Assembly (NCBI GenBank): GCA_001805445.1
Contig: MHGF01000022.1
Location: 10,613-74,612, forward strand
From: Omnitrophica WOR_2 bacterium GWF2_43_52
Lineage (GTDB): Bacteria; Omnitrophota; Gorgyraeia; Gygaellales; UBA12090
Length of the DNA: 64,000 bases
Direction of reading: 5' to 3'
Under the pieces are notes generated by a model. The model made no database searches. It saw nothing but the letters and a program-made list of their open reading frames with translations, and was not told where the DNA came from. Within the stretch, counting starts at the first letter, position 1. Each line of letters opens with the position of its first letter. Shown here piece by piece: positions 2,974 to 45,833 of this stretch. Position numbers and translations under genes: made by a program.

Positions 2974-2979
2974 ACTTTT

Positions 2980-3075: not shown

Positions 3076-3333
3076 TATTACCCTAGATTCGGTTTTCTGC
3101 CTTTATTAGCCTTCTTTGAACGCCAATTAAGTTTACCCCTTCTTTTACGCTTACTCATTGTGAGGACCGCTCCTTTCATGCAATAATTAATTTCTGGTAT
3201 AATTCTTGCCGTATTATAGCTTAGGCTTGCGAGAAAATCAACAACTATTGACAATAAGGAATCTTATGATTATAATATAATTAGAAATTTAAAGGTATAC
3301 TAGAGTTTTATACTAAGAAAGGAGCGATATTCG

Positions 3334-3639: not shown

Positions 3640-3725
3640 TTCTTTAAAGAAACTTCTTAAAGAAGTTTCTTTAAAGAAGCCAGGTTTTTTATTATTTTAA
3701 AAGGCCTGGCTTTTTTTATTTCCGA
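3640..3725. terminator. Bidirectional terminator region between convergent genes (tandem hairpins)
   Basis: Perfect 17-bp-arm palindrome ttctttaaagaaacttc ttaa gaagtttctttaaagaa followed by agccagg...cctggct hairpin and T7 run. Confidence 0.55.
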
Positions 3726-4319: not shown

Positions 4320-4389
4320 AGAGTCATACTACCAATAAAAAACCCTTGGCATCTAAGAAGTTTTGCTTCATAGAATGCCAAGGGTAAAA

Positions 4390-4827
4390 CTATTGCGCTT
4401 TTTCTTCCGGGATTATCCCCATGAGCGGATCATCACTCATACCGGGAGTTTCAGGCATTGCTTCTATATTCTCGATAGAAATATTTCTTGCGATGTTCTG
4501 GCCATTGTTGAGCGCGTAATCAATACTCGCGGTATCGCCTATCTTAATTCCGCTTATATCCTTTACGCCTTCAAATTTTGTCTCCGCGTCTGTTATCAGG
4601 AGAAGCTCTTTTTCTTCATCAGTTTGATAGTCCATATAAATAACGGTTAACTTTGCTGCCTGCGAATCTATCTCCTTTACCTCACCCCAAACCCAGGAAA
4701 TTTCATCCGTTGCGGGCATACTCTCCGTTACCGCCTCTTCTACCGCTCTCGGCTCATGCTGGCAGAATCCTGCTCCCGCTAAAGAAAGTAACCCGATTAT
4801 CGTTAATGCGTACACCTTGGTTTTCAT
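4390..4827 (-). CDS. Secreted/periplasmic hypothetical protein (145 aa)
   Basis: ORF with signal peptide MKTKVYALTIIGLLSLAGAG; no family recognised. Confidence 0.45.
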   Translation of the reverse strand: MKTKVYALTIIGLLSLAGAGFCQHEPRAVEEAVTESMPATDEISWVWGEVKEIDSQAAKLTVIYMDYQTDEEKELLLITDAETKFEGVKDISGIKIGDTASIDYALNNGQNIARNISIENIEAMPETPGMSDDPLMGIIPEEKAQ

Positions 4828-4908
4828 ATTTATCCAGCCTCCTCTCTTTCTATAGAAGTACTATAAACAAATCTTATCTTATTGTCAAGGACAATCAGGA
4901 ATTCCCCT

Positions 4909-5511
4909 TTAGCCGGCATCCGGTTTGAGGATGCCCCCGGATATGATAAGCTTCATCCCATCTTCAATAGACATATCCATGAATTTTACATCCCGCTTAG
5001 CCACAAATACTAAAAACCCGCTCCATGGCCCCGGAGTTGTGCCTATAAGCACGTGAATAAGTTCTTCTCCTATTTTATCCTGTGCCTCTTTAAAACCCGT
5101 ATTGGTCATAAAACCAAGCGACCAAATACCTTTTGAAGGATATTCTATCAAAACGACTTTCTTAAAAGCCGCCTGATCCTTGGAAAAGAGAAAGCCGACA
5201 ATCTGTTTTGCCGAAGGATAAATCTGGCGTATTCCCGGAAGTTTGAGAAACCAGCCCTCAAAGGCATGCAAAACTTTTTTACCTAAGAAATGAGAAGCGA
5301 AAAATCCTGCTACCAAAACCAGGGTAATCCCTAAGACAATGCCTATCCCGGGGATAAAAAAACCGAACGTTTGTTCAAGATAGTTGTTGATAAACCCGCC
5401 GAAAATACCATCAATAAACTTAAAGATAAACGTGATAAGGTATACGGTAATAAAAAGGGGTAGAATCAACAGTAAGCCCGCGACAAAATAACGGCGTAAT
5501 TTTATCATCAT
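4909..5511 (-). CDS. DUF502 family membrane protein
   Basis: Two N-terminal TM helices then conserved ...KGIWSLGFMT...TTPGPWSGFLVFV...GGILKP region characteristic of DUF502. Confidence 0.6.
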   Translation of the reverse strand: MMIKLRRYFVAGLLLILPLFITVYLITFIFKFIDGIFGGFINNYLEQTFGFFIPGIGIVLGITLVLVAGFFASHFLGKKVLHAFEGWFLKLPGIRQIYPSAKQIVGFLFSKDQAAFKKVVLIEYPSKGIWSLGFMTNTGFKEAQDKIGEELIHVLIGTTPGPWSGFLVFVAKRDVKFMDMSIEDGMKLIISGGILKPDAG

Positions 5512-5748
5512 CTTTGTCTCCTCAGAATATATCGGTAACGGCACCCAAAAACTTGCCTGAGAAATCAGGAATGGTTACTTATAGATAAAAACTATGCCCT
5601 TCTCCTTTACCGGAATATATGAGAAAAGCATAGGGGCATACCTTTAAGGCCCACAAGAAATTAAAAAAATACCCTGCCCTTATCTTCTGTAAGCATTACT
5701 CTCACAAATAATAAAGGCAGGGTAAACAGCACGGTTAAAAACCCCTTG

Positions 5749-5967
5749 CTATTCTTTAGCTATAGCTAAAGCAATGACACCTGCTAAAATAAGGAATGGG
5801 CCTGCGCATCCTTTAATTAAGGTCCAGATTTCCCATCTCCATCTCACAACCAAATATGCCCCTAAAACCAAAAGAACAAGGCCTAATACGACTTTCAGGA
5901 CTGTTTTGAATATTTTGTCCGTATCTGTCTTTTCTGCTTCTTTTGTTTCCTTCACCTCTTCTGCCAT
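5749..5967 (-). CDS. Small membrane protein (72 aa), hypothetical
   Basis: Acidic N-terminus followed by two hydrophobic helices; lies downstream of repeat copy 2. Confidence 0.35.
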   Translation of the reverse strand: MAEEVKETKEAEKTDTDKIFKTVLKVVLGLVLLVLGAYLVVRWRWEIWTLIKGCAGPFLILAGVIALAIAKE

Positions 5968-6078
5968 TTTTCCACCTCCTTAATTTCGTTGTTTCGCGGT
6001 TACGTTGAATTATAATAAGAAAACAACTGCTCCCCCACCCTTCAGCTATAGTAGTTATCACTGAAAAAGCGTCTTTTA

Positions 6079-6172
6079 AACACGAATTCCCACGAATTAC
6101 ACACTAATCATCACGAATACAGCGACGAAGTAATTCGTGTGTATTTGTGTGTAATTTGTGCCTATTCGTGTA
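6079..6172. repeat. Copy 2 of the CACGAAT-word imperfect palindrome
   Basis: aacacgaattcccacgaattacacactaatcatcacgaatac...aattcgtgtgtatttgtgtgtaatttgtgcctattcgtgtaaaa. Confidence 0.8.
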
Positions 6173-6229
6173 AAATAAAGGTTTTTCAGCGGTAACTATA
6201 GTATATAGCTGAAGGCAACACAGGGACTT

Positions 6230-7141
6230 TTAATGTGGCCTGCTTTTCCATCTTCGGTGTATCCATCCCCATTCCTGAGGATACTTTTGTATGTATGACT
6301 CAATGATTGATGTAATCCTTTGTATGATAGCGTGTATTGTTTCATCATTGGTATCTTTTTTCTCAATACTTACTTCCGGTTCTATCATTAGTGTATGTGT
6401 ATCAGACGGCTGGCGTACAATAAACATAGGAAGTATCGGAGCCTGAGTTCTTAACGCGAGGATAGCCGGCCCTGTCGCGGTTGCTGCCTGCCTACCAAAG
6501 AAATCCACGAATACCCCGGCTGTACCGAAATTTTGGTCTAATTGGATAAAAAGCACCTCATTATTGCGTAGCGCCCTCAAAGAATTATCCACACACGCTT
6601 GGCGGGGCGTGCTATGAATAGAATGTATTCCCATCATAGCCCTGCGCTTCTCCAGAAAATCTTCCACCTTATCGTCTCGCATCTTGCGCAAAATCACGCT
6701 TACCTTATAGCCTTCCTGTCTTAATTTGGTAAGCGCTAAAGGGAAATTTCCGAAATGCGCGCTTACGGCAATGGCACCATTCCCCTTTAACAGGGCTTGA
6801 TCAAGATAGCATTTCCCTTCAATGGCCACCATTCCCTTTGCTCTTTGCGGGGCTTCAAGAATCGAAAGTAATTCAACACCGCTTTTTGCCATATTCTGGA
6901 AGCAATTTCGCGCGATGGTTACCTTTGCTTGCTTTGTTAAACGATTCTCAAAAGCAACCTCCAAACTCTCTAAAGCGATGTGCCGCTGTTTTACTGCTAT
7001 CCCATAAGCCATTGTGGCTATTGTCTGGGCAAAACCATAAAGCCATTTCCTGGGTAAACACCCAACTATCAAAGAACAAAGATATAATGATTCCCTGGCA
7101 AGCAAACGATTAAAACGCTTCCCAGCATCCTTTAAAGCCAT
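6230..7141 (-). CDS. lpxL: Lipid A biosynthesis lauroyl/myristoyl acyltransferase (LpxL/HtrB family)
   Basis: LPLAT HX4E-type motif AHFGNFP and C-terminal KYPQEWGWIHRRWK typical of LpxL. Confidence 0.75.
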   Translation of the reverse strand: MALKDAGKRFNRLLARESLYLCSLIVGCLPRKWLYGFAQTIATMAYGIAVKQRHIALESLEVAFENRLTKQAKVTIARNCFQNMAKSGVELLSILEAPQRAKGMVAIEGKCYLDQALLKGNGAIAVSAHFGNFPLALTKLRQEGYKVSVILRKMRDDKVEDFLEKRRAMMGIHSIHSTPRQACVDNSLRALRNNEVLFIQLDQNFGTAGVFVDFFGRQAATATGPAILALRTQAPILPMFIVRQPSDTHTLMIEPEVSIEKKDTNDETIHAIIQRITSIIESYIQKYPQEWGWIHRRWKSRPH

Positions 7142-7189
7142 ATAAGCTCCTACTAGTATAACAAATTTGTTCTTCTAAGCAAGTATTTT

Positions 7190-7675
7190 TTATCGCTTGT
7201 AGCCAAGTTTGCGCAGCAACCCCTTACGCCAGCGCACATCTTCTTCTTTTTCCAGCCCTTTCGGCCCTGCGCCGTCAATAACACCCATAATCCCCCTGCC
7301 TAAGGCTGTCTGGGCTACAATCACCTCAAGAGGATTCGCGGTCGCGCAATAAACAGTACAGACCTCCGCAATCATCTTTACACCATTAAGGATATTGATA
7401 GGATACCCCTGGCGTACTACTACTACAAAACAATGGCCGCAGGCAAGTTCCAAACAATTCTGCTCGGCCAAGGCTTTAAGTTCATCATCATTGCCATCGC
7501 TGCGCACAAGGCAAGCGCCTGAAGCCTCGGAAAATGCCACGCCAAACTTGATTGCCGGGCTTGATTGCGCGATCGTTTCATACATATCTTCAACTGTCTT
7601 AATAAAATGAGCCTGGCCAATAATAATATTGGCGTCATCGGGCTTCTTCATAGAAATTACTTTGAGCTCTACCAT
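7190..7675 (-). CDS. DUF355 / adenosine-specific-kinase-like small protein
   Basis: About 160-aa protein; resemblance to PF04008-type proteins is from memory only. Confidence 0.35.
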   Translation of the reverse strand: MVELKVISMKKPDDANIIIGQAHFIKTVEDMYETIAQSSPAIKFGVAFSEASGACLVRSDGNDDELKALAEQNCLELACGHCFVVVVRQGYPINILNGVKMIAEVCTVYCATANPLEVIVAQTALGRGIMGVIDGAGPKGLEKEEDVRWRKGLLRKLGYKR

Positions 7676-8559
7676 TGTCCCTTACCTCTTTTCTTGCCAT
7701 CATTGCTCCCCGGTTCTACATGTACCACGACGTCAGAAACCCCGTTTATCGCCGTTTTTATTTTCTCCTCAATCCTATCACATAACTTGTCTGCCTGCGT
7801 AACAGTCATATCCTTATGCACCAGGACGTGTAAATCTATATGGATATCGTCAGTTCTTCCCCGCGTCCTGATATCGTGGCATTCAAGCACCCCGTCGATA
7901 GCAGTGACGAGCGCCTCAATACTTTTTATCTCTACCATCGCGGTATCACATAAGACTTTTGAGCTGGAAAATACGATACTCCATGCCGCGTAAGCAATGA
8001 ATAATGCCACAATCAATGAACATACAGGGTCTAACAGAGGGTAGCCGATTTTTACCCCAATGAGCGCGCCTATCACTGTCAAGGAAGTCAAGATATCCGA
8101 ACGAGTATGAAGAGAATCTGCTACCAGAAAATCACTTTTTAATCTTTTGCCCATCCGGGATTCATATATCATGACACCGATATTGATGCCCATGGTAACA
8201 ATCATCACCGCAAAGCTCCAGAACGTAACCTCGGGCACGATGGGATGACGGAAACGTTCTAGCGTATCATGAATAATATAAAAAGCAATAATACTTAAGA
8301 TGAAGGCAATCACTATCGCGGCGAAAGTCTCATATTTCTTATGGCCGTAGGGATGATCCTCATCCTTAGGGCGCAGGCTGATGCTGACGCCGATAAGCCC
8401 AATGATATTTGAGGCCCCGTCAGAGAAAGAATGATACCCGTCACTTACCATCCCTGCACTTTTGGCGGTATAGCCGAAAACAACTTTTACAAGGGCAACA
8501 AACCAATTAAGCGCGAGCACCGCGATAAGGATATGTTTCACCTGCCTGCACTGTGCCAT
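7669..8559 (-). CDS. Cation diffusion facilitator (CDF) family metal efflux transporter
   Basis: Six TM helices, motif SDGYHSFSDGASN and C-terminal cytoplasmic domain typical of CzcD/FieF. Confidence 0.85.
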   Translation of the reverse strand: MAQCRQVKHILIAVLALNWFVALVKVVFGYTAKSAGMVSDGYHSFSDGASNIIGLIGVSISLRPKDEDHPYGHKKYETFAAIVIAFILSIIAFYIIHDTLERFRHPIVPEVTFWSFAVMIVTMGINIGVMIYESRMGKRLKSDFLVADSLHTRSDILTSLTVIGALIGVKIGYPLLDPVCSLIVALFIAYAAWSIVFSSSKVLCDTAMVEIKSIEALVTAIDGVLECHDIRTRGRTDDIHIDLHVLVHKDMTVTQADKLCDRIEEKIKTAINGVSDVVVHVEPGSNDGKKRGKGQW

Positions 8560-8560
8560 A

Positions 8561-9103
8561 TTATTCTAGGAAATCCATGGGATCAAGCAATTCCCCCTTG
8601 TTCCAGATTTCAAAATGTACATGCGGAATAACTCCATAGTGATTGGCGTTACCGGTTTTCCCAACTTCACCGACTATCTGGCCTTGGCGCAAAAGCTGGT
8701 TTTTCTTTACGCTTATTTTAGAAAGATGCCCGTACACCGTTACATACCCTTGGCCATGAAGTAAGCTGACATAATTACCCATCCCGCGGCTAAAACGGGC
8801 CTCTTGTACCTTCGCCTTCCTTACCGCGTAGACCGGAACACCCAGAGGAGCCTGCAAATCTATGCCGTTATGCTTACGGCTGCCGTTGCCGCGGCGTGCC
8901 TGAAAATCTCCCTCTCCCCAGCTATCATGACGAATGATAATCCTATCCTGCGTATAGTTAATAGGGCAACGAAAAAAAACCTTATCCAAATAATAAAGCT
9001 CGCCTGCCACATACAGGGGAAAAATGATTAAAAATATAAGTAAAATAAGATTGAGTATCCGTTGACGCATTTCGCTGAAAAACAAAAAAGCGATGGAGCC
9101 CAC
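8561..9103 (-). CDS. M23 family metallopeptidase
   Basis: HNGIDLQAP...GNYVSLLHGQGYVTVYGHL...HVHFEIW (HxxxD and HxH zinc motifs). Confidence 0.8.
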   Translation of the reverse strand: MGSIAFLFFSEMRQRILNLILLIFLIIFPLYVAGELYYLDKVFFRCPINYTQDRIIIRHDSWGEGDFQARRGNGSRKHNGIDLQAPLGVPVYAVRKAKVQEARFSRGMGNYVSLLHGQGYVTVYGHLSKISVKKNQLLRQGQIVGEVGKTGNANHYGVIPHVHFEIWNKGELLDPMDFLE

Positions 9104-9394
9104 CCGGGCTAAAGCCCGGGATCCTTTTCTTCTTGCCCCTTCGGGGCGGAATCCCGACCGACTCTTGTCTGTCCCGGCCGAAACGTCGGGACTCCATCCG
9201 CGCCCCTGAAGGCCGCGGTTTTGAAGCGTCGGGATAAATTAACCGATAGTTCACATTGGAATTGGTAGAAATTAATAGATATTTATGGAAATTGATTGCC
9301 TTTCTGTAACCTCTTTATATATAGCCGAACAATTAATTTCTATGAATCTCCACAAATTTCTATTAATTTCAACAAAGTTCCAGTTTCTTTTCAC

Positions 9395-11034
9395 TCATTT
9401 CTTGAAGATTATACCACAAAACCCTGCTAACGCACAACAGGCGAGGATAAAGATATCGCCCAGTCCGGTATAAAGGCTTCCTGTTGCGCGTAAAAAGACA
9501 TCCTGGAATTTTATTCCCGGAATAAAAATTTCTTTTCCGTTTTCTGAAACACGTGCCGTAATTTTACCAGTACCATCAATAAAACAGGATACTCCGGTAT
9601 TCGCCGCGCGCACCAAAGGAACCCTATTTTCAACCGCCCTAAACACCGAAGCGCTCAAATGCTGGAAAGGAGCGGATGTTTTCTGAAACCACGCGTCATT
9701 GGTGATAGTGACCAAAAATGCTGCTCCTTTCTTTACAAAGTTACGCGCCAATTCAGGAATAGTATCTTCAAAACAGATGAGAACGGAAAATATCGCAGAT
9801 CCTTGATTCTTGATTCTTGATGCTTGATTCGCATTATTCGTTGGCAATGAAAATAAAACATACTCCCTCCCGGAAGTAAAATCTCCAATAGGAACTATGG
9901 TTTCCAAGAATTTTAAGGAATTCTTTAAGGGAATATATTCTCCGAAAGGCACAAGGTGAAGCTTATCATAACGGCCCGAAAGCTTGCCTTCTTTATTTAT
10001 CAATAACGCGCTATTAAAATATTCCTCATTTTCTTTTACGACGGTACCAAACAATACAGGTATATTTGTTTTCTCCGCTAACGAAAAAATATGTTCTGCT
10101 ATCCATCTATCGTGCGTATCTCCATAAAATCCGGGGCTTGAAGCCTCCGGCCAGATAATAAGATCGGGATTTTCTAAGGCCGCTTTTTGTGTCAAGTGGG
10201 TATACCTCTCCAAAATGAGCGGCTGCGAACCCAAAGCCCATTTCAACTCTTGAGGAATATTACCCTGGATGAGGGAAAGCTTCACAACGAAGGGCGAAGG
10301 GCGAAGGGCGAAGGACGAAAGATACTGTAATTTTAAAAAACCATATAGTAGATAAATAAATAAAGTTATAATTGTAAAACATATATATCTTTTACTGATG
10401 GCCTTGTGCCCGCCACATTGCTTTGGCGGGCATCCGCCAATGCTTTGTGGCGGATGACTTGGTGACTTGGTGACCACGAAATTATATATCGTTACATTCA
10501 CCATCATTATCACAAACGATACCCCATATACTCCAAAGATATCGGCTATCTGAATTATGGGCAGATTAAGATATTGCGAATACCCCAAGAGCGCCCAGCC
10601 AAAGCCGGTCAACACATGCGAACGCACGTATTCAAGAATAACCCAGACGGAAGGAATAAGAAATAAGACGATGGACGATGCCTGCCTGCCTGTCGGCAAG
10701 GCAGGGACGAGGGACGAAATGATAATGCCGAAGAATCCGAAATATACAGCCAGATAGGCAATAAGGAGAATTTGGCCAAGCAGGGTAACGTGGATGAGCC
10801 AGTAAATAGTTATTGACCAAAAGATTATTCCGCAAAGATAAGATAAAAGAAAGGATTGGAGGCGGCTTTTATTCCGCAAGGCGAGAAATAAGGGAACAAA
10901 ACCAAACCAGGCAAGAATCCAAAGCCTGCCATCACAAAAAGGCAGGGCTGATACTATCCCCGATAAGATACTAAGAACTATACTCTTATATTTTTTGACT
11001 GGTGACGTGGTGACGTGGTGACGTGGTGACCTAT

Positions 11035-11050: not shown

Positions 11051-13947
<2,897 letters not shown>

Positions 13948-32538: not shown

Positions 32539-32620
32539 TGTTAAATTTTAGCACACTCAGAAGCTAATTGCCAATAAAAAAGGGCAGGTCTACCCCGCCC
32601 AAAACGCAGACAAAAATGTT

Positions 32621-33388
32621 TTATCGTTGTGTCCCTTCCTTTATGTGATACGCAACTTTATTCTTCTTACAAAACTTAATAACTGCCTGAGCTGAACTGT
32701 TGTAGAATTCCTTAGTATATTTAAATTCAGAAGATTTAACGCTATAGTTAAGCCGGCCAAATATAATTTTGTTTACAAATGATACTGCCTCTAAGATCTC
32801 CCTCAAATCCTGCTTAATTAAATTTGGCGTTGGGTATGGTTCCATGCTCACCCAAGTTTTGAATCCTCTACTACTCAGGTTCTTTAAGGTTTTAACTCTG
32901 TCCTTAAAAGGAGCGGAATTCGGCTCAAATTCCTTCCTGAAATCTTCGCTCAAGGATACCAAAGTAATGCCATATTCATTATTCGTACTTTGCCCGTTTC
33001 TGTCCGCTAATTCTTTGGGATAGGTACCCTTAGTTAGCACTGTGCAACGAATACTATTTTGATTAAGCCTATCAATAATTTTAAGGCTTAATTCGCCTAC
33101 TTCCGGTTGATTATACATGAATGGATCCGTAGAAAAACACATGTGGACATATTTTATTTTTTCTTTATAGCGAGGGATCTCCTTGTCTAGAAGCTCTAAT
33201 GCATTAGAAACAATCTTAGGCCGGCACCAATCTTCATAGGTTTTGACTATACCACATCTTTTTTTCATCATATAAGCGTAGCAGGGATATTTACAGCCAT
33301 GAGAACAACCCTCTACATGGTTTAAGCAAAAGTCGGCATATTCAACGCCGCTTTGATAAAGTAAAGTTTTACGCTCTATCTGATTCAT
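32621..33388 (-). CDS. COG1533/SPL-like radical-SAM-related protein with variant three-Cys cluster C-x3-C-x3-C
   Basis: GCSHGCKYPCYAY resembles the GCxHxCxYCYA core of DNA-repair-photolyase-like radical SAM proteins but with a one-residue insertion; start overlaps the upstream gene by 20 nt. Confidence 0.45.
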   Translation of the reverse strand: MNQIERKTLLYQSGVEYADFCLNHVEGCSHGCKYPCYAYMMKKRCGIVKTYEDWCRPKIVSNALELLDKEIPRYKEKIKYVHMCFSTDPFMYNQPEVGELSLKIIDRLNQNSIRCTVLTKGTYPKELADRNGQSTNNEYGITLVSLSEDFRKEFEPNSAPFKDRVKTLKNLSSRGFKTWVSMEPYPTPNLIKQDLREILEAVSFVNKIIFGRLNYSVKSSEFKYTKEFYNSSAQAVIKFCKKNKVAYHIKEGTQR

Positions 33389-34466
33389 CTTTAAATTGAA
33401 TTATATCGTTTTCTTCTATGGCTTTTCTCTGGCGCCCCTTAGGCGTGAATGGAGGAATTCTTCGAATTTTGATTTTATTCTTTGCTTCTAAACATTTTAA
33501 GGTATCCCTGAATTGACTCTCTAAGTAAACAGTCGAATCGATATTATCCTCAAGCAACGATTTAAATGATACTTCTTTGCCGAGATATTTTTTAAATAAT
33601 AACTCTATTATCTCACTTTGTTTTATATCCGCAAGTTCAAATAATTCTAGCTGACCAGAGCGGAATCCGCGATATTCCACTCGTCCGAGATTGTATTTAG
33701 CAAAAGACGATTTCATAATAGAACAGCCCATATAATAATTAGATAAATGAAAAAGATAATAATAAGTTTTGCGTTTCTCAGGAAATTCAAGTTTATAATA
33801 ATACACAAATTTAGAAAATGTCTTTAGCTGTTCCCTGTAGTGCTCGATAATTCCTTTCTCTCTTGCCTGCCCTTTCAATGTTTTGAATATCTGCCAACCG
33901 TTTCCACCAAATAAATCATTGTAAACATTCTCAACTCTTGGTGCAGATAAAAACTGATTTATTCGCGTAAACATAAAATTCAACAATATCTCTGATTTCT
34001 CAACGCTCATAATCTTTTTTAAAGTTTCCATCTTTATTTTGAATCCAAATGGATCTATAAAAACGAATGTTGGCGCAATATTCTTTACCGTACTAATAAC
34101 ATTATTTATGGTTTCATCAAAATCTTTGTCCACCATAAATGGCTTTATTTTAATCTTCGAATAATCCAGAATTTTCTGTATATTCTCCAAGTGTTCTTTG
34201 CTTTCATCAACAATAATAACATTTATATCTCGAGAGTTTTTTAAAGCTATCCTCTCAATAGCCTGACAGACTAATACCGGTGAACCATAAAAAAGCTTTC
34301 CTTCTTTATCTTTATATCCCCCAATCCCACCAAAACCATCGATAAAATTAAGTTTATTATATTTCCCGACAATTTTTATCCATTTATCAATATAATCAGC
34401 AAAAACAGAGTGCTTGGTTTTAGTCTGTTCTTCGTACTCCCAGGTTTTAAATGGCAATTCACCCAT
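33369..34466 (-). CDS. TcmP-like (three-Cys-motif partner) protein with methyltransferase-fold motifs
   Basis: LNFIDGFGGIGGY (FxGxG SAM-binding motif-I-like) and FVFIDPFGF (DPPY/DPPF-like motif IV) about 90 aa apart; family name recalled from memory, not verified. Confidence 0.4.
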   Translation of the reverse strand: MGELPFKTWEYEEQTKTKHSVFADYIDKWIKIVGKYNKLNFIDGFGGIGGYKDKEGKLFYGSPVLVCQAIERIALKNSRDINVIIVDESKEHLENIQKILDYSKIKIKPFMVDKDFDETINNVISTVKNIAPTFVFIDPFGFKIKMETLKKIMSVEKSEILLNFMFTRINQFLSAPRVENVYNDLFGGNGWQIFKTLKGQAREKGIIEHYREQLKTFSKFVYYYKLEFPEKRKTYYYLFHLSNYYMGCSIMKSSFAKYNLGRVEYRGFRSGQLELFELADIKQSEIIELLFKKYLGKEVSFKSLLEDNIDSTVYLESQFRDTLKCLEAKNKIKIRRIPPFTPKGRQRKAIEENDIIQFKDESDRA

Positions 34467-34479
34467 AATTATACTTTTG

Positions 34480-35460
34480 TTAAAACTGTTTAAATTTATA
34501 TTTACGAGTTAACAGTTTAACTTTTGCTTGTAAATCAGAATCAGACCCGCAAGCTGAAGCTTTTTTTATATTATAAGCTTCTGCTAGGGGTTGAAAAATA
34601 TTCTCGGTTAAGTCGTATATCTTTTTATGTAATCCTTCGCAATACTCAAAAATATCACATTCCATCAAGAGATCATCAAAATATGATTTGAGATTGTCTT
34701 CTTTTGACTTTCCATACGTAATACCTTGCTGAAAATAGTATGGCCATTGCCGGGAAAGAAAATGGTAGAATTTCTCATCGTTATCGTGGAAAAGAAATCC
34801 GCTATGATACCTAAAATGAGCCATTTTATCCCTATAAAGTTTAAATAGCTCAAACCACTCATTATTGCTATCATCGAGTATTTCCATTTTAATAAGATTG
34901 TTTATATCATCCTGATATTTTTCATCAGCTGAAACAATGGTTTTTTTACCCGAAGCAGCTGACGTTTTTAAGCCATCCTTGACTTTCTTTACAATCTCGG
35001 CAAAACTCGCTCTGCCGAAATTACCCCATGATAAAACAGCGCTTATGACTTCAGCGGTAGAATCTAAAATTGAATACATATTGATTAATAAAAGCTGAAG
35101 GCACCTGTTGAAGTGCTTAGGCGCTGAGGGATCAAAAGGCTCATTTTTTAGTTTCTTTATGGGGTTATAGGTATCAGCGTCATATTTTTTCATCAAATCA
35201 AACAACTCATGGTAATCCTCAAAAGAGGATTTTATTAAATCGACACTTGCGCCAAGATGAGAAAACATTATTCTTTGGTCATCAGCCAAGAACTTCGGGC
35301 ATTTATCAAAAGAAAAATAGTCTGCCTCAACATAAAATTTAAACAAAGGTTCAGGAATAACCTTGCTATTACGTGCCACTATCCATGAATCTTCGGGACA
35401 TGTTCTGGCTAATAGTGCTGATACAACAACATCTGCGGTTAAGCAATCTTTAAATTTCAT
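34480..35460 (-). CDS. Hypothetical protein of the cassette (possible HEPN-like R-x4-H motif)
   Basis: 326-aa ORF, AT-rich, tightly spaced with neighbours; YRDKMAHF motif. Confidence 0.3.
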   Translation of the reverse strand: MKFKDCLTADVVVSALLARTCPEDSWIVARNSKVIPEPLFKFYVEADYFSFDKCPKFLADDQRIMFSHLGASVDLIKSSFEDYHELFDLMKKYDADTYNPIKKLKNEPFDPSAPKHFNRCLQLLLINMYSILDSTAEVISAVLSWGNFGRASFAEIVKKVKDGLKTSAASGKKTIVSADEKYQDDINNLIKMEILDDSNNEWFELFKLYRDKMAHFRYHSGFLFHDNDEKFYHFLSRQWPYYFQQGITYGKSKEDNLKSYFDDLLMECDIFEYCEGLHKKIYDLTENIFQPLAEAYNIKKASACGSDSDLQAKVKLLTRKYKFKQF

Positions 35461-35565
35461 TATTCTAATCTTTCAATAATTATTTCTTAGACCAAGCGCC
35501 AATGTCATGTGCAGTCAACTGGATTTAATCAATTTAAACCAGCATATTACGCTACGAACTGCGAA

Positions 35566-36831
35566 TTATTTAGAGAAAATGCCATGGTCAACAAGCAATG
35601 GTGTTATAGAAGCGTCAACTAAACATCCGACAATTGCGCCCTTGCCTTCTTCAAATAGTTTTCGCGCCTCAATATTGTAATTTTCTCGAAGCTTTTTTAA
35701 GTCGGAGACATTTTCATTCCTTTTTAAATCAGTTTCGAGTTTAGCCATAAAATTAACAAGGTTATCGTAATTTAAACCTAATAAAAGCGTATTTCCTAAA
35801 ATAAAATCTTTAACTTCTATATGTTTCGCCGTTGCCGCAATCCATTCTTTTTGCGAAATATGATTTGCCCCTACGGCAAAGAGGGCACAAATATACCCCT
35901 CTGCGAGGGTTGCCTTTAGTGAATATATTGAACTTTTCTCTAAGTCATTTTCATCTAACAGTTTTTCTAATGCTAATATCCGCGCGTAGCTCTCTTCGTA
36001 CTTCTTTTCATTCGCTATTTTAGAAATATCTTGTGTTTCTTTAAGAGCATACTTCATGATTTTTTCCTTATCGATATTATTCTTTGCAGTATCGCCATTT
36101 TCGCGAATTGGAGGAAATACTTTCTCCGTGAAATCTACTATCTCTAATTTCCACCATAAATGATTTTTATGGTCGCCGAACTTACGGTAACGCTTACTCG
36201 GATAGTAATAGTCGTGGTCTGAAGGCGATATAGATTTACTATGAAATTGCTCCAAATTCTTAAAATCAGTTATGTTCAATCGAAATAAAATCGCGTCCAA
36301 CGGAATTTCCCGAGTTATAAGTGAGCTTATCTCGTCATATCTTCCTCGATTTAAATGTATTATCAATTCATTCGTTCTAAATAAATATGAGCAGGCCAGG
36401 GATTCCGTTAAAAACGGAACTCCTTCTAAAGCTTTTTGTTCTTCGTCAGAATAAAGGTCTGAAAAACAAAATTCATAGAAAGTCAGAGGATTTAGATAAT
36501 TCCCATTCGCATCTTCTATTTCAAAATAATCATTGAATTTTTCATCTTCATACGTCCAGATTTTTGCTCGACAGTAGTTATTCGCGTATAATTCCATTTT
36601 ATATGTAACACTGAATTTCTTTTTAGATATTTTCTCTACCGCTGAATCATCGTAGCTAGTTTTATTTTTAATCGTCTTTAGATAAAATGCTGGAAGTGGG
36701 GTAAGAGAAATGCTAACAATCTGATCTATCCCAGTAGGATTTACTATTTTTTCTATTAATGGACATTTGCAATGTAAACACGCTTTAATATTATCATCAT
36801 ATGATTTGTTGCATTTAGGACACTGTTTCAT
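35566..36831 (-). CDS. Hypothetical protein with N-terminal zinc ribbon (first gene of cassette operon)
   Basis: CPKCNKSY...CLHCKC at N-terminus; GAGGAGG SD upstream. Confidence 0.4.
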   Translation of the reverse strand: MKQCPKCNKSYDDNIKACLHCKCPLIEKIVNPTGIDQIVSISLTPLPAFYLKTIKNKTSYDDSAVEKISKKKFSVTYKMELYANNYCRAKIWTYEDEKFNDYFEIEDANGNYLNPLTFYEFCFSDLYSDEEQKALEGVPFLTESLACSYLFRTNELIIHLNRGRYDEISSLITREIPLDAILFRLNITDFKNLEQFHSKSISPSDHDYYYPSKRYRKFGDHKNHLWWKLEIVDFTEKVFPPIRENGDTAKNNIDKEKIMKYALKETQDISKIANEKKYEESYARILALEKLLDENDLEKSSIYSLKATLAEGYICALFAVGANHISQKEWIAATAKHIEVKDFILGNTLLLGLNYDNLVNFMAKLETDLKRNENVSDLKKLRENYNIEARKLFEEGKGAIVGCLVDASITPLLVDHGIFSK

Positions 36832-36867
36832 GGTTACCTCCTCACATCTCTTTAGTTAACTTAAAAA

Positions 36868-36912
36868 ACAAAAACCTCCGCCACTACTGGCGAAGGTTTT
36901 AATTATTTTTAC
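36868..36912 (-). terminator. Rho-independent terminator after the XRE regulator gene
   Basis: ccttcgccagtagtggcggagg hairpin followed by tttttgtttttt on the minus strand. Confidence 0.55.
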
Positions 36913-36991
36913 GTGGCAGTTCCCCCTTCAAACATACCACTTTACTTATACTTAATCGTTGTCTTACATATAGCATAAATTTACCGCCGAG

Positions 36992-37189
36992 TCAAACAAT
37001 TTTTGCCAAGTCATCAAGCGAAATGCCTAAAGATTTTGCTATGCCAACCATAGTGGAAAAAGTAGGATTTTTTGACTCCCCAGATTCAATCTTCACAATC
37101 GTGTTAAAAGATACATCTGCCAAGCAAGCCAGTTTTTCTTGAGATAAACCTTTTTTTAGCCTTAATTCTCTAATTTTCTTAGCTGACAT
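36992..37189 (-). CDS. XRE-family helix-turn-helix transcriptional regulator (65 aa)
   Basis: LRLKKGLSQEKLACLADVSFNTIVKIESG... HTH_3 pattern. Confidence 0.85.
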   Translation of the reverse strand: MSAKKIRELRLKKGLSQEKLACLADVSFNTIVKIESGESKNPTFSTMVGIAKSLGISLDDLAKIV

Positions 37190-37337
37190 TCTCTGACTTT
37201 ATATACTTTTACATATAAACTTTTATTAATAGCGTTTGCCCTATAGCGAATTTAATATACCACATTTTGAGCTTATTTTCCAATCAAAATCGGCAGCAAG
37301 ATGGGCATCAAGAAGCATTGATTTTTGCTTACTTGTA

Positions 37338-37362
37338 TTAAATAAAGCCTAACTTTATTTAA
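37338..37362. promoter_or_regulatory. Perfect 10-bp-arm palindrome, candidate operator for the XRE regulator
   Basis: ttaaataaag cctaa ctttatttaa in the XRE promoter region. Confidence 0.35.
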
Positions 37363-37392
37363 TAAACACGCTATGAAATTATCCCGGACTAT

Positions 37393-37440
37393 AAAATTTT
37401 TGCACGAAAACAGCTCTTTTTTACGTCTTATATAGTAGGA
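37393..37440 (+). promoter_or_regulatory. Conserved promoter-like motif copy C1 (AAAATTTTTGCACGAAAA-N13-ACGTCTTATATAGTAGG)
   Basis: Near-identical to copies at 39032-39080 and 41574-41623; diverged copy at 43104-43150. Confidence 0.5.
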
Positions 37441-37502
37441 GTATAGTGGTAAAAACTATAACCATTTATGCCAAAAAACGCACTATATGAGGAGGGGAAT
37501 AA

Positions 37503-38207
37503 ATGTTCAAAAAATATTCAAAGCGGATAAAACAAAGAATACGCAATTTAAGAAGCCGAGGCTGGTCATTGGGAGAAATTGGTTTAAAAACGGGCATACC
37601 TAAGAATACCCTGTCTGAATGGGTCAGAGATATTCAGCTTTCTAAGGCTCAAGAAAAACGAATAAAAGAAAAGGAAATAGCATCAGCGGCCATTGGAAGA
37701 GATATAGCCAGAAAAATATTGCGTGAAAAAATTGATAAATGGAAGGAAAAAATACGAGAAAAGGTAAAACATTTTGGCAAATCAGCTTTACTAAATCAAG
37801 AAATGGGAAAACTTGTATGTGGATTATTATATCTGTGCGAAGGCTCTAAGTATCCTTCTACCAGATGTTTGATTTTCGGTAACTCCGATCCTAGAATAAT
37901 CAAGGCGTTCCTTAATTTATTAAGGAACTATTTCCGTATTCGAGAGGACAAGTTACGCTGCAGAATCACTCCTCGTTGGGACCAAAACATTAATAAGTTG
38001 CAGATTTTCTGGTCAAATATTACTAAGATTCCTATTGAACAATTCTACCACACAATACCTGACAAGCGTACCAAAGGCAAGACTACTGGAAAGGAAGATT
38101 ATCAAGGAGTTTGCGTTATATATTATTGCGATACCTCATTACAATTTGAGTTACAATCAATCGGTGAAGCAGTAATTAAAGGTGTAGGGGGGAAATCGAA
38201 AAGTTAG
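37503..38207 (+). CDS. HTH-domain protein (234 aa), possibly a degenerate homing-endonuclease or transposase-like protein
   Basis: N-terminal HTH (GWSLGEIGLKTGIPKNTLSEW); weak LAGLIDADG-like GLLYLCEGS; abuts tRNA-Ala. Confidence 0.4.
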   Translation: MFKKYSKRIKQRIRNLRSRGWSLGEIGLKTGIPKNTLSEWVRDIQLSKAQEKRIKEKEIASAAIGRDIARKILREKIDKWKEKIREKVKHFGKSALLNQEMGKLVCGLLYLCEGSKYPSTRCLIFGNSDPRIIKAFLNLLRNYFRIREDKLRCRITPRWDQNINKLQIFWSNITKIPIEQFYHTIPDKRTKGKTTGKEDYQGVCVIYYCDTSLQFELQSIGEAVIKGVGGKSKS

Positions 38208-38280
38208 TGGAGCTGGAGGGGATCGAACCCTCTGCCTCTTCCATGCCATGGAAGCGCTCTCCCAGGTGAGCTACAGCCCC
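38208..38280 (-). tRNA. tRNA-Ala (anticodon GGC)
   Basis: Reverse complement folds as GGGGCTG/CAGCTCC acceptor with G3:U70, D-stem GCTC/GAGC, anticodon loop AT-GGC-AT, T-loop TTCGATC; no encoded CCA. Confidence 0.85.
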
Positions 38281-38346: not shown

Positions 38347-38739
38347 TTATTCTTGCTTTAAATACTCCGATAGCTTCTCCCAAGTGCGGCTGCCCATGAC
38401 TCCATCTGCATTTAATCCATTTGCTTCCTGGAATTTTCTGATTGCTTCTTTGGTCGCGGAACCGATTTGCCCGTCTGCCTCACCTTTATAAAATCCGGCA
38501 TTCTTTAGCGCGGTTTGAATCTCGGTGGCTACCGGCATCTTAAAGACTACTTTTTGCTTTTTCGTGGCATCGGTCAAGGCCTCTGACAACGCATTCACCT
38601 TGTCTTTTAAGGCGCTATTCTCCTTTTGCAGGCGCTCAACTTGCCCTTCAAGCGAATTTATTTTACCCTGATACTCCAGCGTGGCGCATCCTGATGCCCC
38701 AAAAATTAAAAATAACCCTAAAAATATAGTTCTACCCAT
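38347..38739 (-). CDS. Lipoprotein with coiled-coil segment and C-terminal peptidoglycan-binding (PG_binding_1) domain
   Basis: Lipobox LIFGASGC; ...FYKGEADGQIGSATKEAIRKFQEANGLNADGVMGSRTW; start set at internal ATG (ORF-track start is a TTG). Confidence 0.6.
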   Translation of the reverse strand: MGRTIFLGLFLIFGASGCATLEYQGKINSLEGQVERLQKENSALKDKVNALSEALTDATKKQKVVFKMPVATEIQTALKNAGFYKGEADGQIGSATKEAIRKFQEANGLNADGVMGSRTWEKLSEYLKQE

Positions 38740-38789
38740 TTGGCTTTTCTCCTTTTTTAGAAGAGTAATTATACCCCAGCTTTCTTTGT

Positions 38790-38818
38790 TTGACAAATAT
38801 TATTTTAGGTGCTATATT
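38790..38818 (+). promoter_or_regulatory. Consensus sigma-70 promoter driving tRNA-Leu
   Basis: TTGACA - 17 nt - TATATT, 17 nt upstream of the tRNA 5' end. Confidence 0.5.
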
Positions 38819-38835
38819 TTACTCATTCTTCCTTT

Positions 38836-38918
38836 GCTGGAGTGGTGGAATGGCATACACGCCAGTCTCAAAAACTGGTGGGGTCACACCCGTGTGGGTT
38901 CAACTCCCACCTCCAGCA
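38836..38918 (+). tRNA. tRNA-Leu (anticodon CAA), type II with long variable arm
   Basis: GCTGGAG/CTCCAGC acceptor stem, anticodon stem CCAGT/ACTGG with loop CT-CAA-AA, variable arm GGGGTCACACCC, T-arm GTGGG TTCAACT CCCAC, discriminator A; embedded in spurious N-terminal extension of ORF 38681..39613. Confidence 0.75.
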
Positions 38919-39031
38919 TTTATTATTTTTGGGTTCTCCCGTCCCTCTTGTTAGCTTGCGCGGCGGGATCCCGCTACGCGGGAAACTCCCTTCCCCGGCA
39001 CCATATCTTCCTCCTATCTCATAATCTCCTG

Positions 39032-39080
39032 AAAATTTTTGCACGAAAACCGCCTCTTACTCCGTCTTATATTGTAGGAG
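39032..39080 (+). promoter_or_regulatory. Conserved promoter-like motif copy C2
   Basis: gaaaatttttgcacgaaaaccgcctcttactccgtcttatattgtaggagg directly upstream of ORF6N-1 ATG. Confidence 0.5.
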
Positions 39081-39088
39081 GCGAAGAT

Positions 39089-39613
39089 ATGGCTGATTTA
39101 ATATCTACAGAAATAATAACTGCAAATATTTTAGTTATAAGAGGTAAAAGGGTTATGCTAGATAGTGATTTAGCTGTGCTTTATGGCGTAAAGACCGGAA
39201 GATTAAACGAACAGGTAAGTAGAAACATTAAAAGGTTTCCGGAAGACTTTATGTTTCTGCTTACCAAAGAAGAGGCTTTAAGCTTGAAATCGCATTTTGC
39301 GACTTCAAGCTGGGGCGGCGTAAGAAAACTCCCTCGCGCCTTTACCCAAGAAGGTGTCGCTATGCTCTCAGGTGTGTTAAGCAGCGAACGCGCAATTATG
39401 GTCAATATACAGATTATGCGCGCCTTTACTCATCTAAGGCGCATGCTTCTAACCAATAAGGACCTCAAACGAAGAATTGAAGAAATGGAAGAGAAATACG
39501 ATAAGCAGTTTGCGATAGTATTTCAAGCTTTAAAACAATTATTGGAACCTGCGCCGACAAAACCAAAATCGCAGATTGGGTTTCGTATGTATAATGATTC
39601 TGAAAAAAGTTAA
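39089..39613 (+). CDS. ORF6N-domain DNA-binding protein, paralog 1
   Basis: VMLDSDLAVLYGVKTGRLNEQVSRNIKRFPEDFMFLLT core; AGGAGG SD; ORF-track N-terminal extension rejected. Confidence 0.75.
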   Translation: MADLISTEIITANILVIRGKRVMLDSDLAVLYGVKTGRLNEQVSRNIKRFPEDFMFLLTKEEALSLKSHFATSSWGGVRKLPRAFTQEGVAMLSGVLSSERAIMVNIQIMRAFTHLRRMLLTNKDLKRRIEEMEEKYDKQFAIVFQALKQLLEPAPTKPKSQIGFRMYNDSEKS

Positions 39614-41623: not shown

Positions 41624-41720
41624 CAATATTTTAACCCTAATTTGGCCAATTAGATGCCAAAGTAAACCTTGATGCGCCATTTTGGCACATCAAATCGGGC
41701 GTTGGAAGGAGGAATACACT

Positions 41721-42293
41721 ATGTCTAAGGCTATCACCGCGGAAATCATCGCTGCAGAAATTCTAGAATTTAGAGGAAAAAAGGTAATGCTGGATCGTGA
41801 TTTAGCAACACTTTATGGAGTTACTCCTAAAGTTTTGAATCAAGCAGTAAAAAGAAATATCAAACGTTTTCCTGAGGATTTTATGTTTCAGCTCTCTTGG
41901 GAAGAAACAGATTCTTTAAGGTCACAATTTGTGACCTTAAAGAATACAAGACTCGAAGCCTCCAAAAGAGGCAAACATATTAAATATCTCCCCTATGTTT
42001 TTACAGAACACGGTGTAGCTATGCTCTCCAGCGTTTTAAACAGCGAAAGAGCCATACAAGTGAACATCCAAATTATGAGGGCTTTTACTAAATTAAGAGA
42101 AATGCTGCTAACTCATAAAGACTTAGCAGAAAAGATTGAGACCCTTGAGAAGAAATACGCCGAACATGATCAGGCTATTAAGGCAATATTTGAAGCAATT
42201 AAACAGCTCCTTGAGCCGCCGCTAGCAAAACCAAAGCCACAGATTGGATTCCGCTCTTATAAAGAGCCTACAGAAGAAGTAAAATATGCCTAA
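41721..42293 (+). CDS. ORF6N-domain DNA-binding protein, paralog 2
   Basis: VMLDRDLATLYGVTPKVLNQAVKRNIKRFPEDFMFQLS; start set at MSKAITAEI after GGAAGGAGG SD. Confidence 0.75.
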   Translation: MSKAITAEIIAAEILEFRGKKVMLDRDLATLYGVTPKVLNQAVKRNIKRFPEDFMFQLSWEETDSLRSQFVTLKNTRLEASKRGKHIKYLPYVFTEHGVAMLSSVLNSERAIQVNIQIMRAFTKLREMLLTHKDLAEKIETLEKKYAEHDQAIKAIFEAIKQLLEPPLAKPKPQIGFRSYKEPTEEVKYA

Positions 42294-44773: not shown

Positions 44774-44818
44774 AAAGAGGAGAGGCGCCTTTCTAATGAG
44801 TTGCCTCTCCTCTTTTTA
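44774..44818 (+). terminator. Rho-independent terminator after the sigma/anti-sigma/Spy-like operon
   Basis: aaagaggagaggc ... gcctctcctcttt then TTTAT. Confidence 0.6.
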
Positions 44819-45833
44819 TCCTTAACTGCCCACAGGCTCCTTCTATATCCTGGCCGCGGGATTTCCGCAGCGTCACCACAAGCCCTGCCCGTATCAAAGC
44901 GTGGCTGAATTTTTCGGTCTCGCCTTTATCCGGGGCCTTATAAGGCAATTCCTTTACCGGATTATAGATGAGTAAATTAACCTTGGCATTCCAGCCTTTT
45001 AAAAGCCTGATAATATCTTGAGCGGCTTCTTGCGAACAATTAATTCCTTTAAGTAAAGCATATTCAAAAGTAACCTGACGATTGGTATCTACAGCGTATT
45101 TTTTACAGGCTGCGATTAATTCATTAAGCGGATATTTCTTATTAACAGGCATGAGGCGGCTTCTCGTGAGGCTATCGGCGGAGTGCAAAGATACCGAAAG
45201 CTCTATTTGTAAACCCTCAGAAGCCAAGCGCTTAATTCCCGGAATAATTCCTGATGTAGAAACCGTTATCCTGCGCGCGCCAATACCGAAACCTTCCTTG
45301 CTATTAATAATTCGTATTGCCTTAAGAACATTATCATAATTATCGAGAGGCTCTCCCGTACCCATAAATACAACATGCGTAACCCTCCCCGCACCCCCGC
45401 GGTGCGTGTGGGTTATTGCCAAAAGCTGTGCCAGGATTTCCCAGGCCTTTAAATTCCTCTTGAAACCCAACAATCCGCTCGCGCAGAAATCGCAGGCATA
45501 TTTACAACCAACCTGCGATGAAAGACACACAGTATTTCTGCCTCGAGCAGGTATTACTACCGACTCAACTGAACTCCCATCTTCTAAACGAAAAAGGAAT
45601 TTTCTTGTTCCATCCCTTGATTCCTGCAAAGTAATTAATGCTATCGCCCTATGGGCGAATGTTTCCGTGAGCCGGCTTCGTAGGGACGCGGAAAGATTGG
45701 TCATTGCATCAAAGGAACACGCTCCCCTCTGGTATAACCAAGAAAATATCTGTTTGGCATGATATAACGGCTCATGCCAGTCTTTCAAAACAGATTCTAC
45801 TTCTTGCAGGGAGCAATTTTTTATATCGGTCAT
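44793..45833 (-). CDS. rlmN: 23S rRNA/tRNA m2A methyltransferase RlmN (radical SAM)
   Basis: CKYACDFCASG radical-SAM cluster and RlmN-specific C-terminal Cys. Confidence 0.9.
   Translation of the reverse strand: MTDIKNCSLQEVESVLKDWHEPLYHAKQIFSWLYQRGACSFDAMTNLSASLRSRLTETFAHRAIALITLQESRDGTRKFLFRLEDGSSVESVVIPARGRNTVCLSSQVGCKYACDFCASGLLGFKRNLKAWEILAQLLAITHTHRGGAGRVTHVVFMGTGEPLDNYDNVLKAIRIINSKEGFGIGARRITVSTSGIIPGIKRLASEGLQIELSVSLHSADSLTRSRLMPVNKKYPLNELIAACKKYAVDTNRQVTFEYALLKGINCSQEAAQDIIRLLKGWNAKVNLLIYNPVKELPYKAPDKGETEKFSHALIRAGLVVTLRKSRGQDIEGACGQLRIKRGEATH

Follow-up and report, generated by a model that had tools for sequence, protein, structure and literature searches.

A predicted RlmJ-like methyltransferase-fold protein coupled to a radical-SAM enzyme in a putative mobile DNA modification or defence cassette

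RlmJ methylates A2030 of 23S rRNA (m6A2030) and rejected single-stranded DNA (PMC3814359). In its active site, H19 and S100 hold the amino-acid part of S-adenosylmethionine (SAM), H42 stacks on the SAM adenine, E118 binds the ribose and D143 binds the adenine, while D164 and K18 are catalytic and replacement of either one by alanine abolishes activity (PMC3814359). The catalytic Asp-Pro at motif IV is positioned by the motif X lysine in T4 Dam, M.TaqI and RlmJ, and RlmJ does not use a motif IV tyrosine for base stacking (PMC3814359). Among radical-SAM enzymes, very few are known to act on DNA (thymidine-hypermodification paper); RadicalSAM.org groups DUF5131 with spore photoproduct lyase, which acts on DNA, in Megacluster-5. 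Here, we analyzed 64,000 nucleotides of Omnitrophica WOR_2 bacterium GWF2_43_52 (assembly GCA_001805445.1, contig MHGF01000022.1, positions 10,613 to 74,612; the whole stretch is called the window below), in which the gene of TcmP, a three-Cys-motif partner protein, overlaps that of a radical-SAM enzyme. We propose, at a probability of roughly 0.55, that TcmP and its radical-SAM partner constitute a mobile module of two SAM-dependent enzymes for DNA modification or defence. The TcmP family is already named and catalogued as a defence candidate, and phage annotation informally says "methyltransferase"; the relationship to RlmJ, the residue-level map, the three interchangeable partner types and the contrast in evolutionary rate were not found described in the searchable literature.

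The TcmP gene and its elements are listed below with the evidence used to place each.

33369..34466, minus strand: TcmP gene (three-Cys-motif partner protein), 365 aa; ATG-started open reading frame, TIGR04474
33681..34466, minus strand: class I SAM-methyltransferase-like domain, residues 1-262, with motif X helix, strands 1-7 and helical insertion 166-214; AlphaFold model, DSSP, Foldseek, hhalign
33462..33644, minus strand: C-terminal winged helix-turn-helix, residues 275-335; Pfam PF22560 and model
34407..34418, minus strand: motif X core, T-K18-H19-S; conservation and RlmJ alignment
34314..34352, minus strand: motif I, LNFIDGFGGIGGY, D43-x-F-x-G47-x-G49-x-Y51, residues 39-51; conservation and RlmJ alignment
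34275..34289, minus strand: Y-G61-S62-P63-V motif; conservation and RlmJ alignment
34200..34220, minus strand: strand 2 and motif II acidic residue, VIIVD87ES; D/E in the alignment column, RlmJ alignment
34113..34130, minus strand: motif III region, DKDF116D117E; conservation, opposite RlmJ D143-G-F145
34041..34067, minus strand: motif IV, FVFID138-P-F-G-F, residues 134-142; conservation and RlmJ alignment

A hypothetical protein in GenBank, from Omnitrophica WOR_2 bacterium GWF2_43_52, has the same sequence as TcmP (100 % identity), and TcmP matches the NCBIfam model TIGR04474 (TcmP) at 162.9 bits, against a cut-off of 53, over residues 13-258. The family comprises 6,728 members (50 % identity clusters, E<=1e-3) in a HMMER scan of 1.84 billion cluster representatives. 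An earlier note on this DNA had described degenerate motifs I and IV in the 365-aa protein; both are present where it placed them (LNFIDGFGGIGGY and FVFIDPFGF), and the aspartates D43 and D138 lie 95 residues apart. In an alignment of 30 homologues at 40-71 % identity, D43, G47, G49, Y51, D138, P139, F140 and G141 are invariant. In a more diverse set of 134 family representatives with mutual identity of at most ~50 %, motif I was retained at D43 (132/134), F45 (113/134), G47 (133/134), G49 (131/134) and Y51 (126/134), and motif IV at D138 (133/134), P139 (132/134), F140 (115/134) and G141 (128/134).

Further conserved features, beyond those of the earlier note, were K18-H19, G61-S62-P63, D87, F116-D117 and E159...F164-M165. 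K18 (132/134) and H19 (123/134) lie on the N-terminal helix, and the G-S-P motif was kept at G61 (132/134), S62 (133/134) and P63 (128/134). F116 and D117 are each at least 90 % conserved in the 30-homologue alignment, with F116 found in 114/134 of the diverse set, and position 87 is D or E in its column, as judged by eye in the 30-homologue alignment. Neither the 30 homologues nor the 134 representatives contain an invariant or near-invariant Cys. Among full-length copies from GTDB species genomes, motif I was found in 74/77, DP[FY]G in 77/77 and the ordered series of motif I, GSP and motif IV in 73/77; of 547 unrelated open reading frames (200 aa or longer) at those loci, 1, 2 and 0 showed the three patterns, respectively. 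The motifs are therefore near-invariant among homologues, and they are kept across the family, including copies with other types of partner.

The AlphaFold2 model of TcmP, built from the homologue alignment, is confident (predicted local distance difference test, pLDDT, 92; predicted TM-score, pTM, 0.90). It consists of an N-terminal helix (residues 13-33), strands 1-5 alternating with helices, the helical insertion (166-214) after strand 5, an antiparallel pair of strands 6 and 7, and a helix-strand winged-helix module. In the DSSP assignment, strands 1-7 are in methyltransferase order with helices on both faces of the sheet. As class I methyltransferases do, the model has motif I where strand 1 ends and motif IV where strand 4 ends. 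A Foldseek search of the PDB returned 360 matches at E<=1e-3, and the 50 listed were all of class I methyltransferase fold and nearly all methyltransferases. Among the matches listed, E. coli RlmJ structures took the top TM-scores (0.45/0.57 for 7p9i_B across 307 columns; 6qdx and 7p8q were others), and the Legionella RlmJ homologue 2oo3 was also among the highest. Methyltransferases likewise predominated among Foldseek matches in the viral structure library BFVD. TcmP thus very probably has a class I methyltransferase fold and SAM site, as judged from the model, and the predicted fold upholds the earlier idea of a Rossmann-fold SAM-type protein. The sole Pfam match of TcmP is PF22560 ("GMT-like wHTH"), at 27.1 bits against a cut-off of 27, and 28/30 homologues match it; the C-terminal winged helix is likely a target-recognition domain. 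Mean pairwise identity within TcmP is 24 % for the winged helix, 27 % for the helical insertion and 33-36 % for the core.

The relationship to RlmJ was examined by profile-profile comparison with hhalign. The TcmP N-domain (134 sequences) matched a 76-sequence RlmJ profile reaching down to 46 % identity at 95.1 % (E 3.1e-8, score 60.6), and the best alignment paired TcmP residues 17-139 with RlmJ residues 17-165. As controls, 30 column shuffles scored at most 23.7, and the E. coli methyltransferase RsmJ scored 16.9. The strength of the match depended on profile depth. The 76-sequence profile was built from a metagenome scan, a plain homologue search having given only sequences at least 83 % identical; with the resulting 121-sequence set (RlmJ and 120 homologues at least 83 % identical) the N-domain match stood at 85 % (E 6e-6), and with RlmJ as a single sequence or a shallow alignment the matches were weak or spurious.

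In this alignment, motif order is shared and every RlmJ residue that contacts SAM or takes part in catalysis has a conserved counterpart in TcmP (H19; D43/F45/G47/G49; S62; D87; F116/D117; and D138 with K18), and the SAM pocket looks intact. TcmP K18-H19 occupies the same positions as RlmJ K18 (catalytic) and H19 (SAM contact); D43-x-F45-x-G47-x-G49-x-Y51 aligns with RlmJ D40-x-H42-x-G44-x-G46-x-Y48, G61-S62-P63 with G99-S100-P101, D87 with the acidic E118 on strand 2, and D138-P139 with D164-P165. The equivalents of RlmJ K18, H19, S100, E118 and D164, namely K18, H19, S62, D87 and D138, are 92-99 % conserved where measured. The two proteins nevertheless differ in several respects. The helical subdomain of RlmJ (~residues 50-96) is reduced to a short hairpin in TcmP, leaving a 41-residue alignment gap; the RlmJ N-terminal tail residues Y4 and H6 are without clear equivalents; the RlmJ motif DPPY is DPFG in TcmP; and TcmP adds the helical insertion after strand 5 and the C-terminal winged helix. 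RlmJ is also a solitary housekeeping gene, whereas TcmP is paired with a radical-SAM enzyme, mobile and patchily distributed. The RlmJ Pfam model PF04378 (formerly DUF519; structures including the PDB 4BLU series, 7P9I and 2OO3) gave no match at E<=10 in 30 TcmP members. TcmP is a sister, or distant relative, of RlmJ and stands outside the RlmJ family.

These results bear on the class of methyltransferase to which TcmP was first likened. The earlier note had compared motif I with that of 5-methylcytosine (m5C) and RsmD-type enzymes; this resemblance gave way to RlmJ, of the gamma-class N6-amino-methyltransferase type, as the nearest relative. An m5C methyltransferase, which would carry a catalytic Pro-Cys in motif IV and ENV in motif VI, was ruled out, as TcmP has neither the conserved catalytic Pro-Cys nor any invariant Cys. 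RsmD and m5C enzymes share with TcmP the generic class I fold and glycine-rich motif I, and the RsmD-like structure 2esr is among the Foldseek matches; an RsmD-type assignment was rejected because the RlmJ match extends further along TcmP and because K-H and G-S-P are RlmJ-specific motifs. In the model, the order of parts in TcmP (motif X helix, Rossmann core, helical insertion, winged helix) corresponds to the layout of gamma-class amino-methyltransferases. The N6-adenine/N4-cytosine DNA enzymes of this class, such as M.TaqI, have in common with TcmP the motif order X-I-II-III-IV...VIII and a C-terminal recognition domain, although none of their Pfam sequence models matches TcmP. The likening of motif IV to (D/N)PP(Y/F) held for its first half, since D-P aligns with RlmJ D164-P165, and failed for the second, where TcmP has F-G in place of P-(Y/F). 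Accordingly, the PROSITE pattern N6_MTASE, [LIVMAC]-[LIVFYWA]-{DYP}-[DN]-P-P-[FYW], does not fit TcmP V-F-I-D-P-F-G, and the second Pro and aromatic residue are absent in 77/77 copies.

Downstream of TcmP lies the radical-SAM partner, whose gene overlaps the TcmP 3' end.

32621..33388, minus strand: radical-SAM partner gene, 255 aa; PF04055, AlphaFold, Foldseek
33275..33310, minus strand: cluster motif G-C28-S-H-G-C32-K-Y-P-C36-Y-A (CX3CX3C); conservation
33369..33388, minus strand: 20-nt overlap of TcmP end and partner start; open reading frame coordinates, the site where natural fusions join

The 20-nt overlap points to translational coupling of TcmP and its partner. The partner matches PF04055 (radical SAM) at 57.3 bits against a cut-off of 29.5 and, weakly, the PA0069 and Rv2578c families and DUF5131. 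Across 39 sequences, G27, C28, H30, C32, C36 and Y37 are invariant, and the consensus motif, G-C-x-H-G-C-x-[YF]-P-C-Y-A, recurs at 42 other loci; its spacing, CX3CX3C, is not the canonical radical-SAM CX3CX2C. The partner model (AlphaFold pLDDT 85.7) has spore photoproduct lyase as its best PDB match (TM 0.72, E 3.6e-8), well ahead of other radical-SAM enzymes, and the Joint Genome Institute (JGI) labels homologues "DNA repair photolyase". The window's partner differs from spore photoproduct lyase in being ~85 residues shorter, in its CX3CX3C rather than CX3CX2C motif and in its coupling to a methyltransferase-like protein; it does not match TIGR04070 (spore photoproduct lyase), and in NCBIfam it falls far short of the cut-offs set for true lyases. 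Net charge is +12 for the partner and +10 for the methyltransferase-like domain of TcmP (residues 1-262). A fourth Cys of the partner, C240, is invariant, and C115, on a core strand, is near-invariant; by analogy with the catalytic Cys of spore photoproduct lyase, either could serve as a hydrogen-atom donor.

To describe the cassette elsewhere, 83 non-redundant TcmP loci from GTDB genomes and other assemblies were analyzed (numbered with the prefix L below). A three-Cys partner was adjacent or fused in 76/83 loci by pattern and in a further three by hidden Markov model or by eye (~79/83), and the remaining 4/83 sit at or near contig ends. Natural fusions of TcmP and partner, proteins of ~630 aa, were found at 13 loci. 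TcmP is obligatorily paired with, or fused to, a radical-SAM enzyme from the group of spore photoproduct lyase, DUF5131 or PA0069, and the link to a Cys-cluster partner suggested in the earlier note thus extends to nearly every locus. The partners fall into three types, counted here over pattern-detected loci only.

CX3CX3C (the window's type): 42 loci, 6 fused; radical SAM, fold nearest spore photoproduct lyase
CX7CX2C, DUF5131: 14 loci, 0 fused; PF07505 at 347 bits
CX3CX2C, ~340 aa: 20 loci, 7 fused; Pfam SPL 61-74 bits against a cut-off of 27

Spore photoproduct lyase, a DNA-acting enzyme, belongs to the radical-SAM group in which all three types fall. The two members of the cassette evolve at different rates: partners of the window's type stay 52-80 % identical while TcmP drops to 28 %, so that the L069 and L049 partners are 73 % and 70 % identical to the window's and their TcmPs 29 % and 32 %, respectively. 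The closest TcmP relative has a different partner type in 13/74 cases (for example, L069 and L056, L049 and L064, or L053 and L052), at TcmP identities of 44-60 % in 12/13 cases and 32 % in one. Since related TcmPs swap partners, and since the partner is conserved while TcmP diverges, the modules have been shuffled and have evolved at unequal rates; TcmP is the module that varies, and the three radical-SAM types serve as constant modules that can replace one another.

The distribution of TcmP is patchy over many bacterial and archaeal phyla, and homologues occur on 72 plasmid records. At L006, L015, L024 and, in part, L029, the pair is inserted between a 676-aa N6/N4 methyltransferase (Mod) and a 972-aa ResIII helicase in tight operons, and the order Mod-TcmP-radical SAM-Res is also found at L066, with a distant TcmP and a partner of the spore-photoproduct-lyase type. 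These Mod/Res operons are type III restriction-modification systems. As both its TcmP and its type of partner set L066 apart, insertion into Mod/Res operons has occurred independently at least twice. The Mod-TcmP-radical SAM-Res operons span 2971-9851 at L006 and 2223-9666 at L066. Restriction-modification, AbiEii, HNH, OLD-like or Eco57I-like neighbours are present at some loci, including L001, L091 and L093. At L093, the TcmP pair stands in a block with an Eco57I-like methyltransferase, Methylase_S and Bro-N between two CofH-like radical-SAM genes (1-185 and 12027-13101), which may be an island between duplicated or split cofH genes.

Location inside known defence systems is what defines the PADLOC candidates, and most have a role that is still putative. 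Two of them, PDC-M30A (1e-26) and PDC-M41A (3e-11), match TcmP, and their B subunits (DUF5131-type) match the window's partner weakly (8e-5 and 1.5e-5) over the N-terminal 110 residues. PDC-M30 and PDC-M41 share the two-gene logic with a three-Cys partner; the partner in the window differs in being of the CX3CX3C, spore-photoproduct-lyase-like kind. In the Gordonia phage ThankyouJordi (L088, 3263-5841), the TcmP homologue is gene 42, annotated as a "methyltransferase", which comes directly after the immunity repressor (gene 43) and is convergent with the DUF5131 gene 41. A slot beside the immunity repressor is typical of prophage-encoded defence genes.

Collectively, we somewhat favour a self-contained cassette of two genes in which TcmP, as modelled, supplies the methyltransferase-fold subunit that binds SAM. 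The target is probably DNA, in view of the likeness of the partners to spore photoproduct lyase, the winged helix of TcmP and the presence of the pair inside restriction-modification operons. For a role in DNA modification or antiviral defence, to which mobility and the position in a prophage immunity module point, we put the chances at about even. In such a cassette, TcmP would bind SAM and recognise a nucleic-acid site through its winged helix and helical insertion; it would flip out a base and probably transfer a methyl or other SAM-derived group onto it. The partner, with a second SAM and a [4Fe-4S] cluster, would carry out radical chemistry on the same exposed nucleotide. The division of labour might resemble that of restriction-modification, with TcmP as the variable targeting or marking subunit and the radical-SAM enzyme as the constant effector. 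Three sub-models fit the data alike: the writing of a complex mark on DNA, an attack by radical chemistry on DNA that lacks the mark, in the manner of restriction, or an accessory role beside type III systems. Tentatively, the methyltransferase-fold subunit might steer a spore-photoproduct-lyase-like radical-SAM enzyme to DNA sites, where it would write a radical-derived base modification or act as a radical-chemistry "restriction" arm replacing a nuclease, the partner types being alternative effectors.

Several points weigh against the proposed DNA modification or defence module. Sequence searches show no methyltransferase domain in TcmP (30 members against Pfam at E<=10; PDB sequences by phmmer and by two profile searches; and PHROGs), so that the fold is visible only through structure prediction and profile-profile comparison; in the latter, full-length TcmP (75 sequences) against 22 enterobacterial RlmJ sequences gave only 31 % (E 5e-4), over motif I. 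With DPFG rather than (D/N)PP(Y/F/W), amino-methyl transfer is not assured, and RlmJ, the nearest characterised relative, works on rRNA, not DNA. Fusion and gene overlap are what suggest a complex of TcmP and its partner. Several pairs sit alone among housekeeping genes without defence neighbours, and of 50,697 phage records just 5, from 3 distinct phages, carry a homologue, all three being Gordonia temperate phages. Finally, no functional study or experiment on any TcmP-family member was found in the searchable literature, where TcmP, PDC-M30/M41, DUF5131 and radical-SAM plus methyltransferase defence receive catalogue mentions only.

Other explanations of the pair were weighed against this proposal. 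The idea that TcmP is no methyltransferase and carries the two motifs by coincidence agrees with the failure of Pfam and PDB sequence searches to recognise a methyltransferase domain, yet this has a negligible probability and is already refuted: the confident model has the methyltransferase fold with the motifs at the expected strand ends, the Foldseek matches agree, the motifs are near-invariant and almost absent from background open reading frames, and the profiles match RlmJ. A more serious alternative is that TcmP is a catalytically dead pseudo-methyltransferase, serving as a targeting or base-presenting scaffold or as a SAM sensor, with all chemistry left to the radical-SAM enzyme. DPFG in place of DPPY would fit such a protein, as would the slow evolution of the presumably catalytic partner beside a TcmP that diverges fast and swaps partners, and the concentration of variability in the winged helix and helical insertion. 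However, pseudo-methyltransferases usually let catalytic positions drift, and D138, P139, K18 and H19 are 92-99 % conserved in this family of 6,728 clusters; moreover, as RlmJ does not stack the base on its motif IV tyrosine, loss of the tyrosine need not abolish activity. We therefore consider a dead scaffold unlikely. The data cannot decide between the "enzyme" and "scaffold" alternatives of the earlier note, but the strict conservation of catalytic-type D138 and K18 favours an active enzyme, and TcmP is probably an active transferase.

Two further explanations concern the target. The pair might modify rRNA or tRNA, with TcmP methylating an RNA base as RlmJ does and the partner acting as an RNA-directed radical-SAM enzyme. 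The only characterised relative is indeed an rRNA methyltransferase that rejected single-stranded DNA, some loci lie among housekeeping genes, and leuS is near the cassette in the window. An RNA target is nevertheless less likely than even the dead scaffold, as such a role sits poorly with the patchy distribution, with the low-GC island described below, with homologues on plasmids, in a prophage immunity module and inside restriction-modification operons, with partners nearest a DNA lyase by fold and, for one type, also by Pfam family, and with the loss of the RlmJ helical subdomain and gain of a winged helix. Less probable again is DNA repair, in which the spore-photoproduct-lyase-like enzyme would reverse a lesion or crosslink and TcmP would be an accessory for lesion recognition. 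The best structural match of the partner, the JGI label and the location of the cassette directly upstream of nfo speak for repair; NCBIfam scores far under the cut-offs for true spore photoproduct lyases speak against it, as do a terminator-like hairpin, promoter-like site and GC step before nfo, which adjoins the pair at no other locus. Repair would also leave unexplained the conserved SAM-methyltransferase active site, the restriction-modification embedding and the placement beside a prophage repressor.

The analysis replaces an imprecise annotation by a specific hypothesis that names individual residues, in which TcmP appears to be a real and probably active SAM enzyme of the RlmJ type. 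If the pair does act on DNA by a radical mechanism, it would be a widespread second class that matters for radical-SAM enzymology and phage-defence biology; if it is an RNA or repair enzyme, the value would not go beyond that of a routine functional annotation.

In the window, the cassette occupies one end of a low-GC island (32600-38280, GC 0.32-0.37, flanks 0.44-0.46), within which GC is 0.32 for TcmP and 0.37 for the partner, compared with 0.45-0.46 for nfo and leuS. The island abuts the 3' end of tRNA-Ala(ggc) (38207-38280, minus strand); acquisition at this tRNA is unsupported, as neither an integrase nor a repeat of the tRNA end was found. Further elements of the island and its border are as follows.

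32582..32600, minus strand: terminator-like hairpin ending the cassette before nfo; hairpin, GC step 0.37 to 0.45
34480-35460, minus strand: 326-aa protein, no known family
35566-36831, minus strand: 421-aa protein with N-terminal zinc ribbon, no known family
36992-37189, minus strand: 65-aa HTH_3 regulator
37503-38207, plus strand: 234-aa protein, weak PHROG regulator matches only

The gene nfo (endonuclease IV), directly downstream, is set apart by this hairpin and by its own promoter-like site; a functional link to the cassette was rejected because of the terminator and the GC step and because the neighbourhood does not recur, nfo being beside the TcmP pair in none of the other loci examined. 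The 326-aa gene ends 13 nt ahead of TcmP and may be co-transcribed with it. The four upstream island genes were rejected as parts of the system, as they have no relatives at the 83 other TcmP loci and no match to any known family; they may be separate cargo or a defence pair.

Beyond the island, two paralogues on the plus strand (38681-39613 and 41682-42293) share a long near-identical segment (…VMLD.DLA.LYGV…NIKRFPEDFMF…) and flank small open reading frames. By eye they look ORF6N/antirepressor-type, which would indicate a second mobile region. The open reading frame at 38681-39613 crosses tRNA-Leu(caa) (38835-38919), and because of this overlap its true start is probably downstream. A 346-aa protein encoded at 44793-45833 on the minus strand, with the sequence CKYACDFCASG, resembles by eye the radical-SAM rRNA/tRNA methyltransferase RlmN and is unrelated to the cassette.

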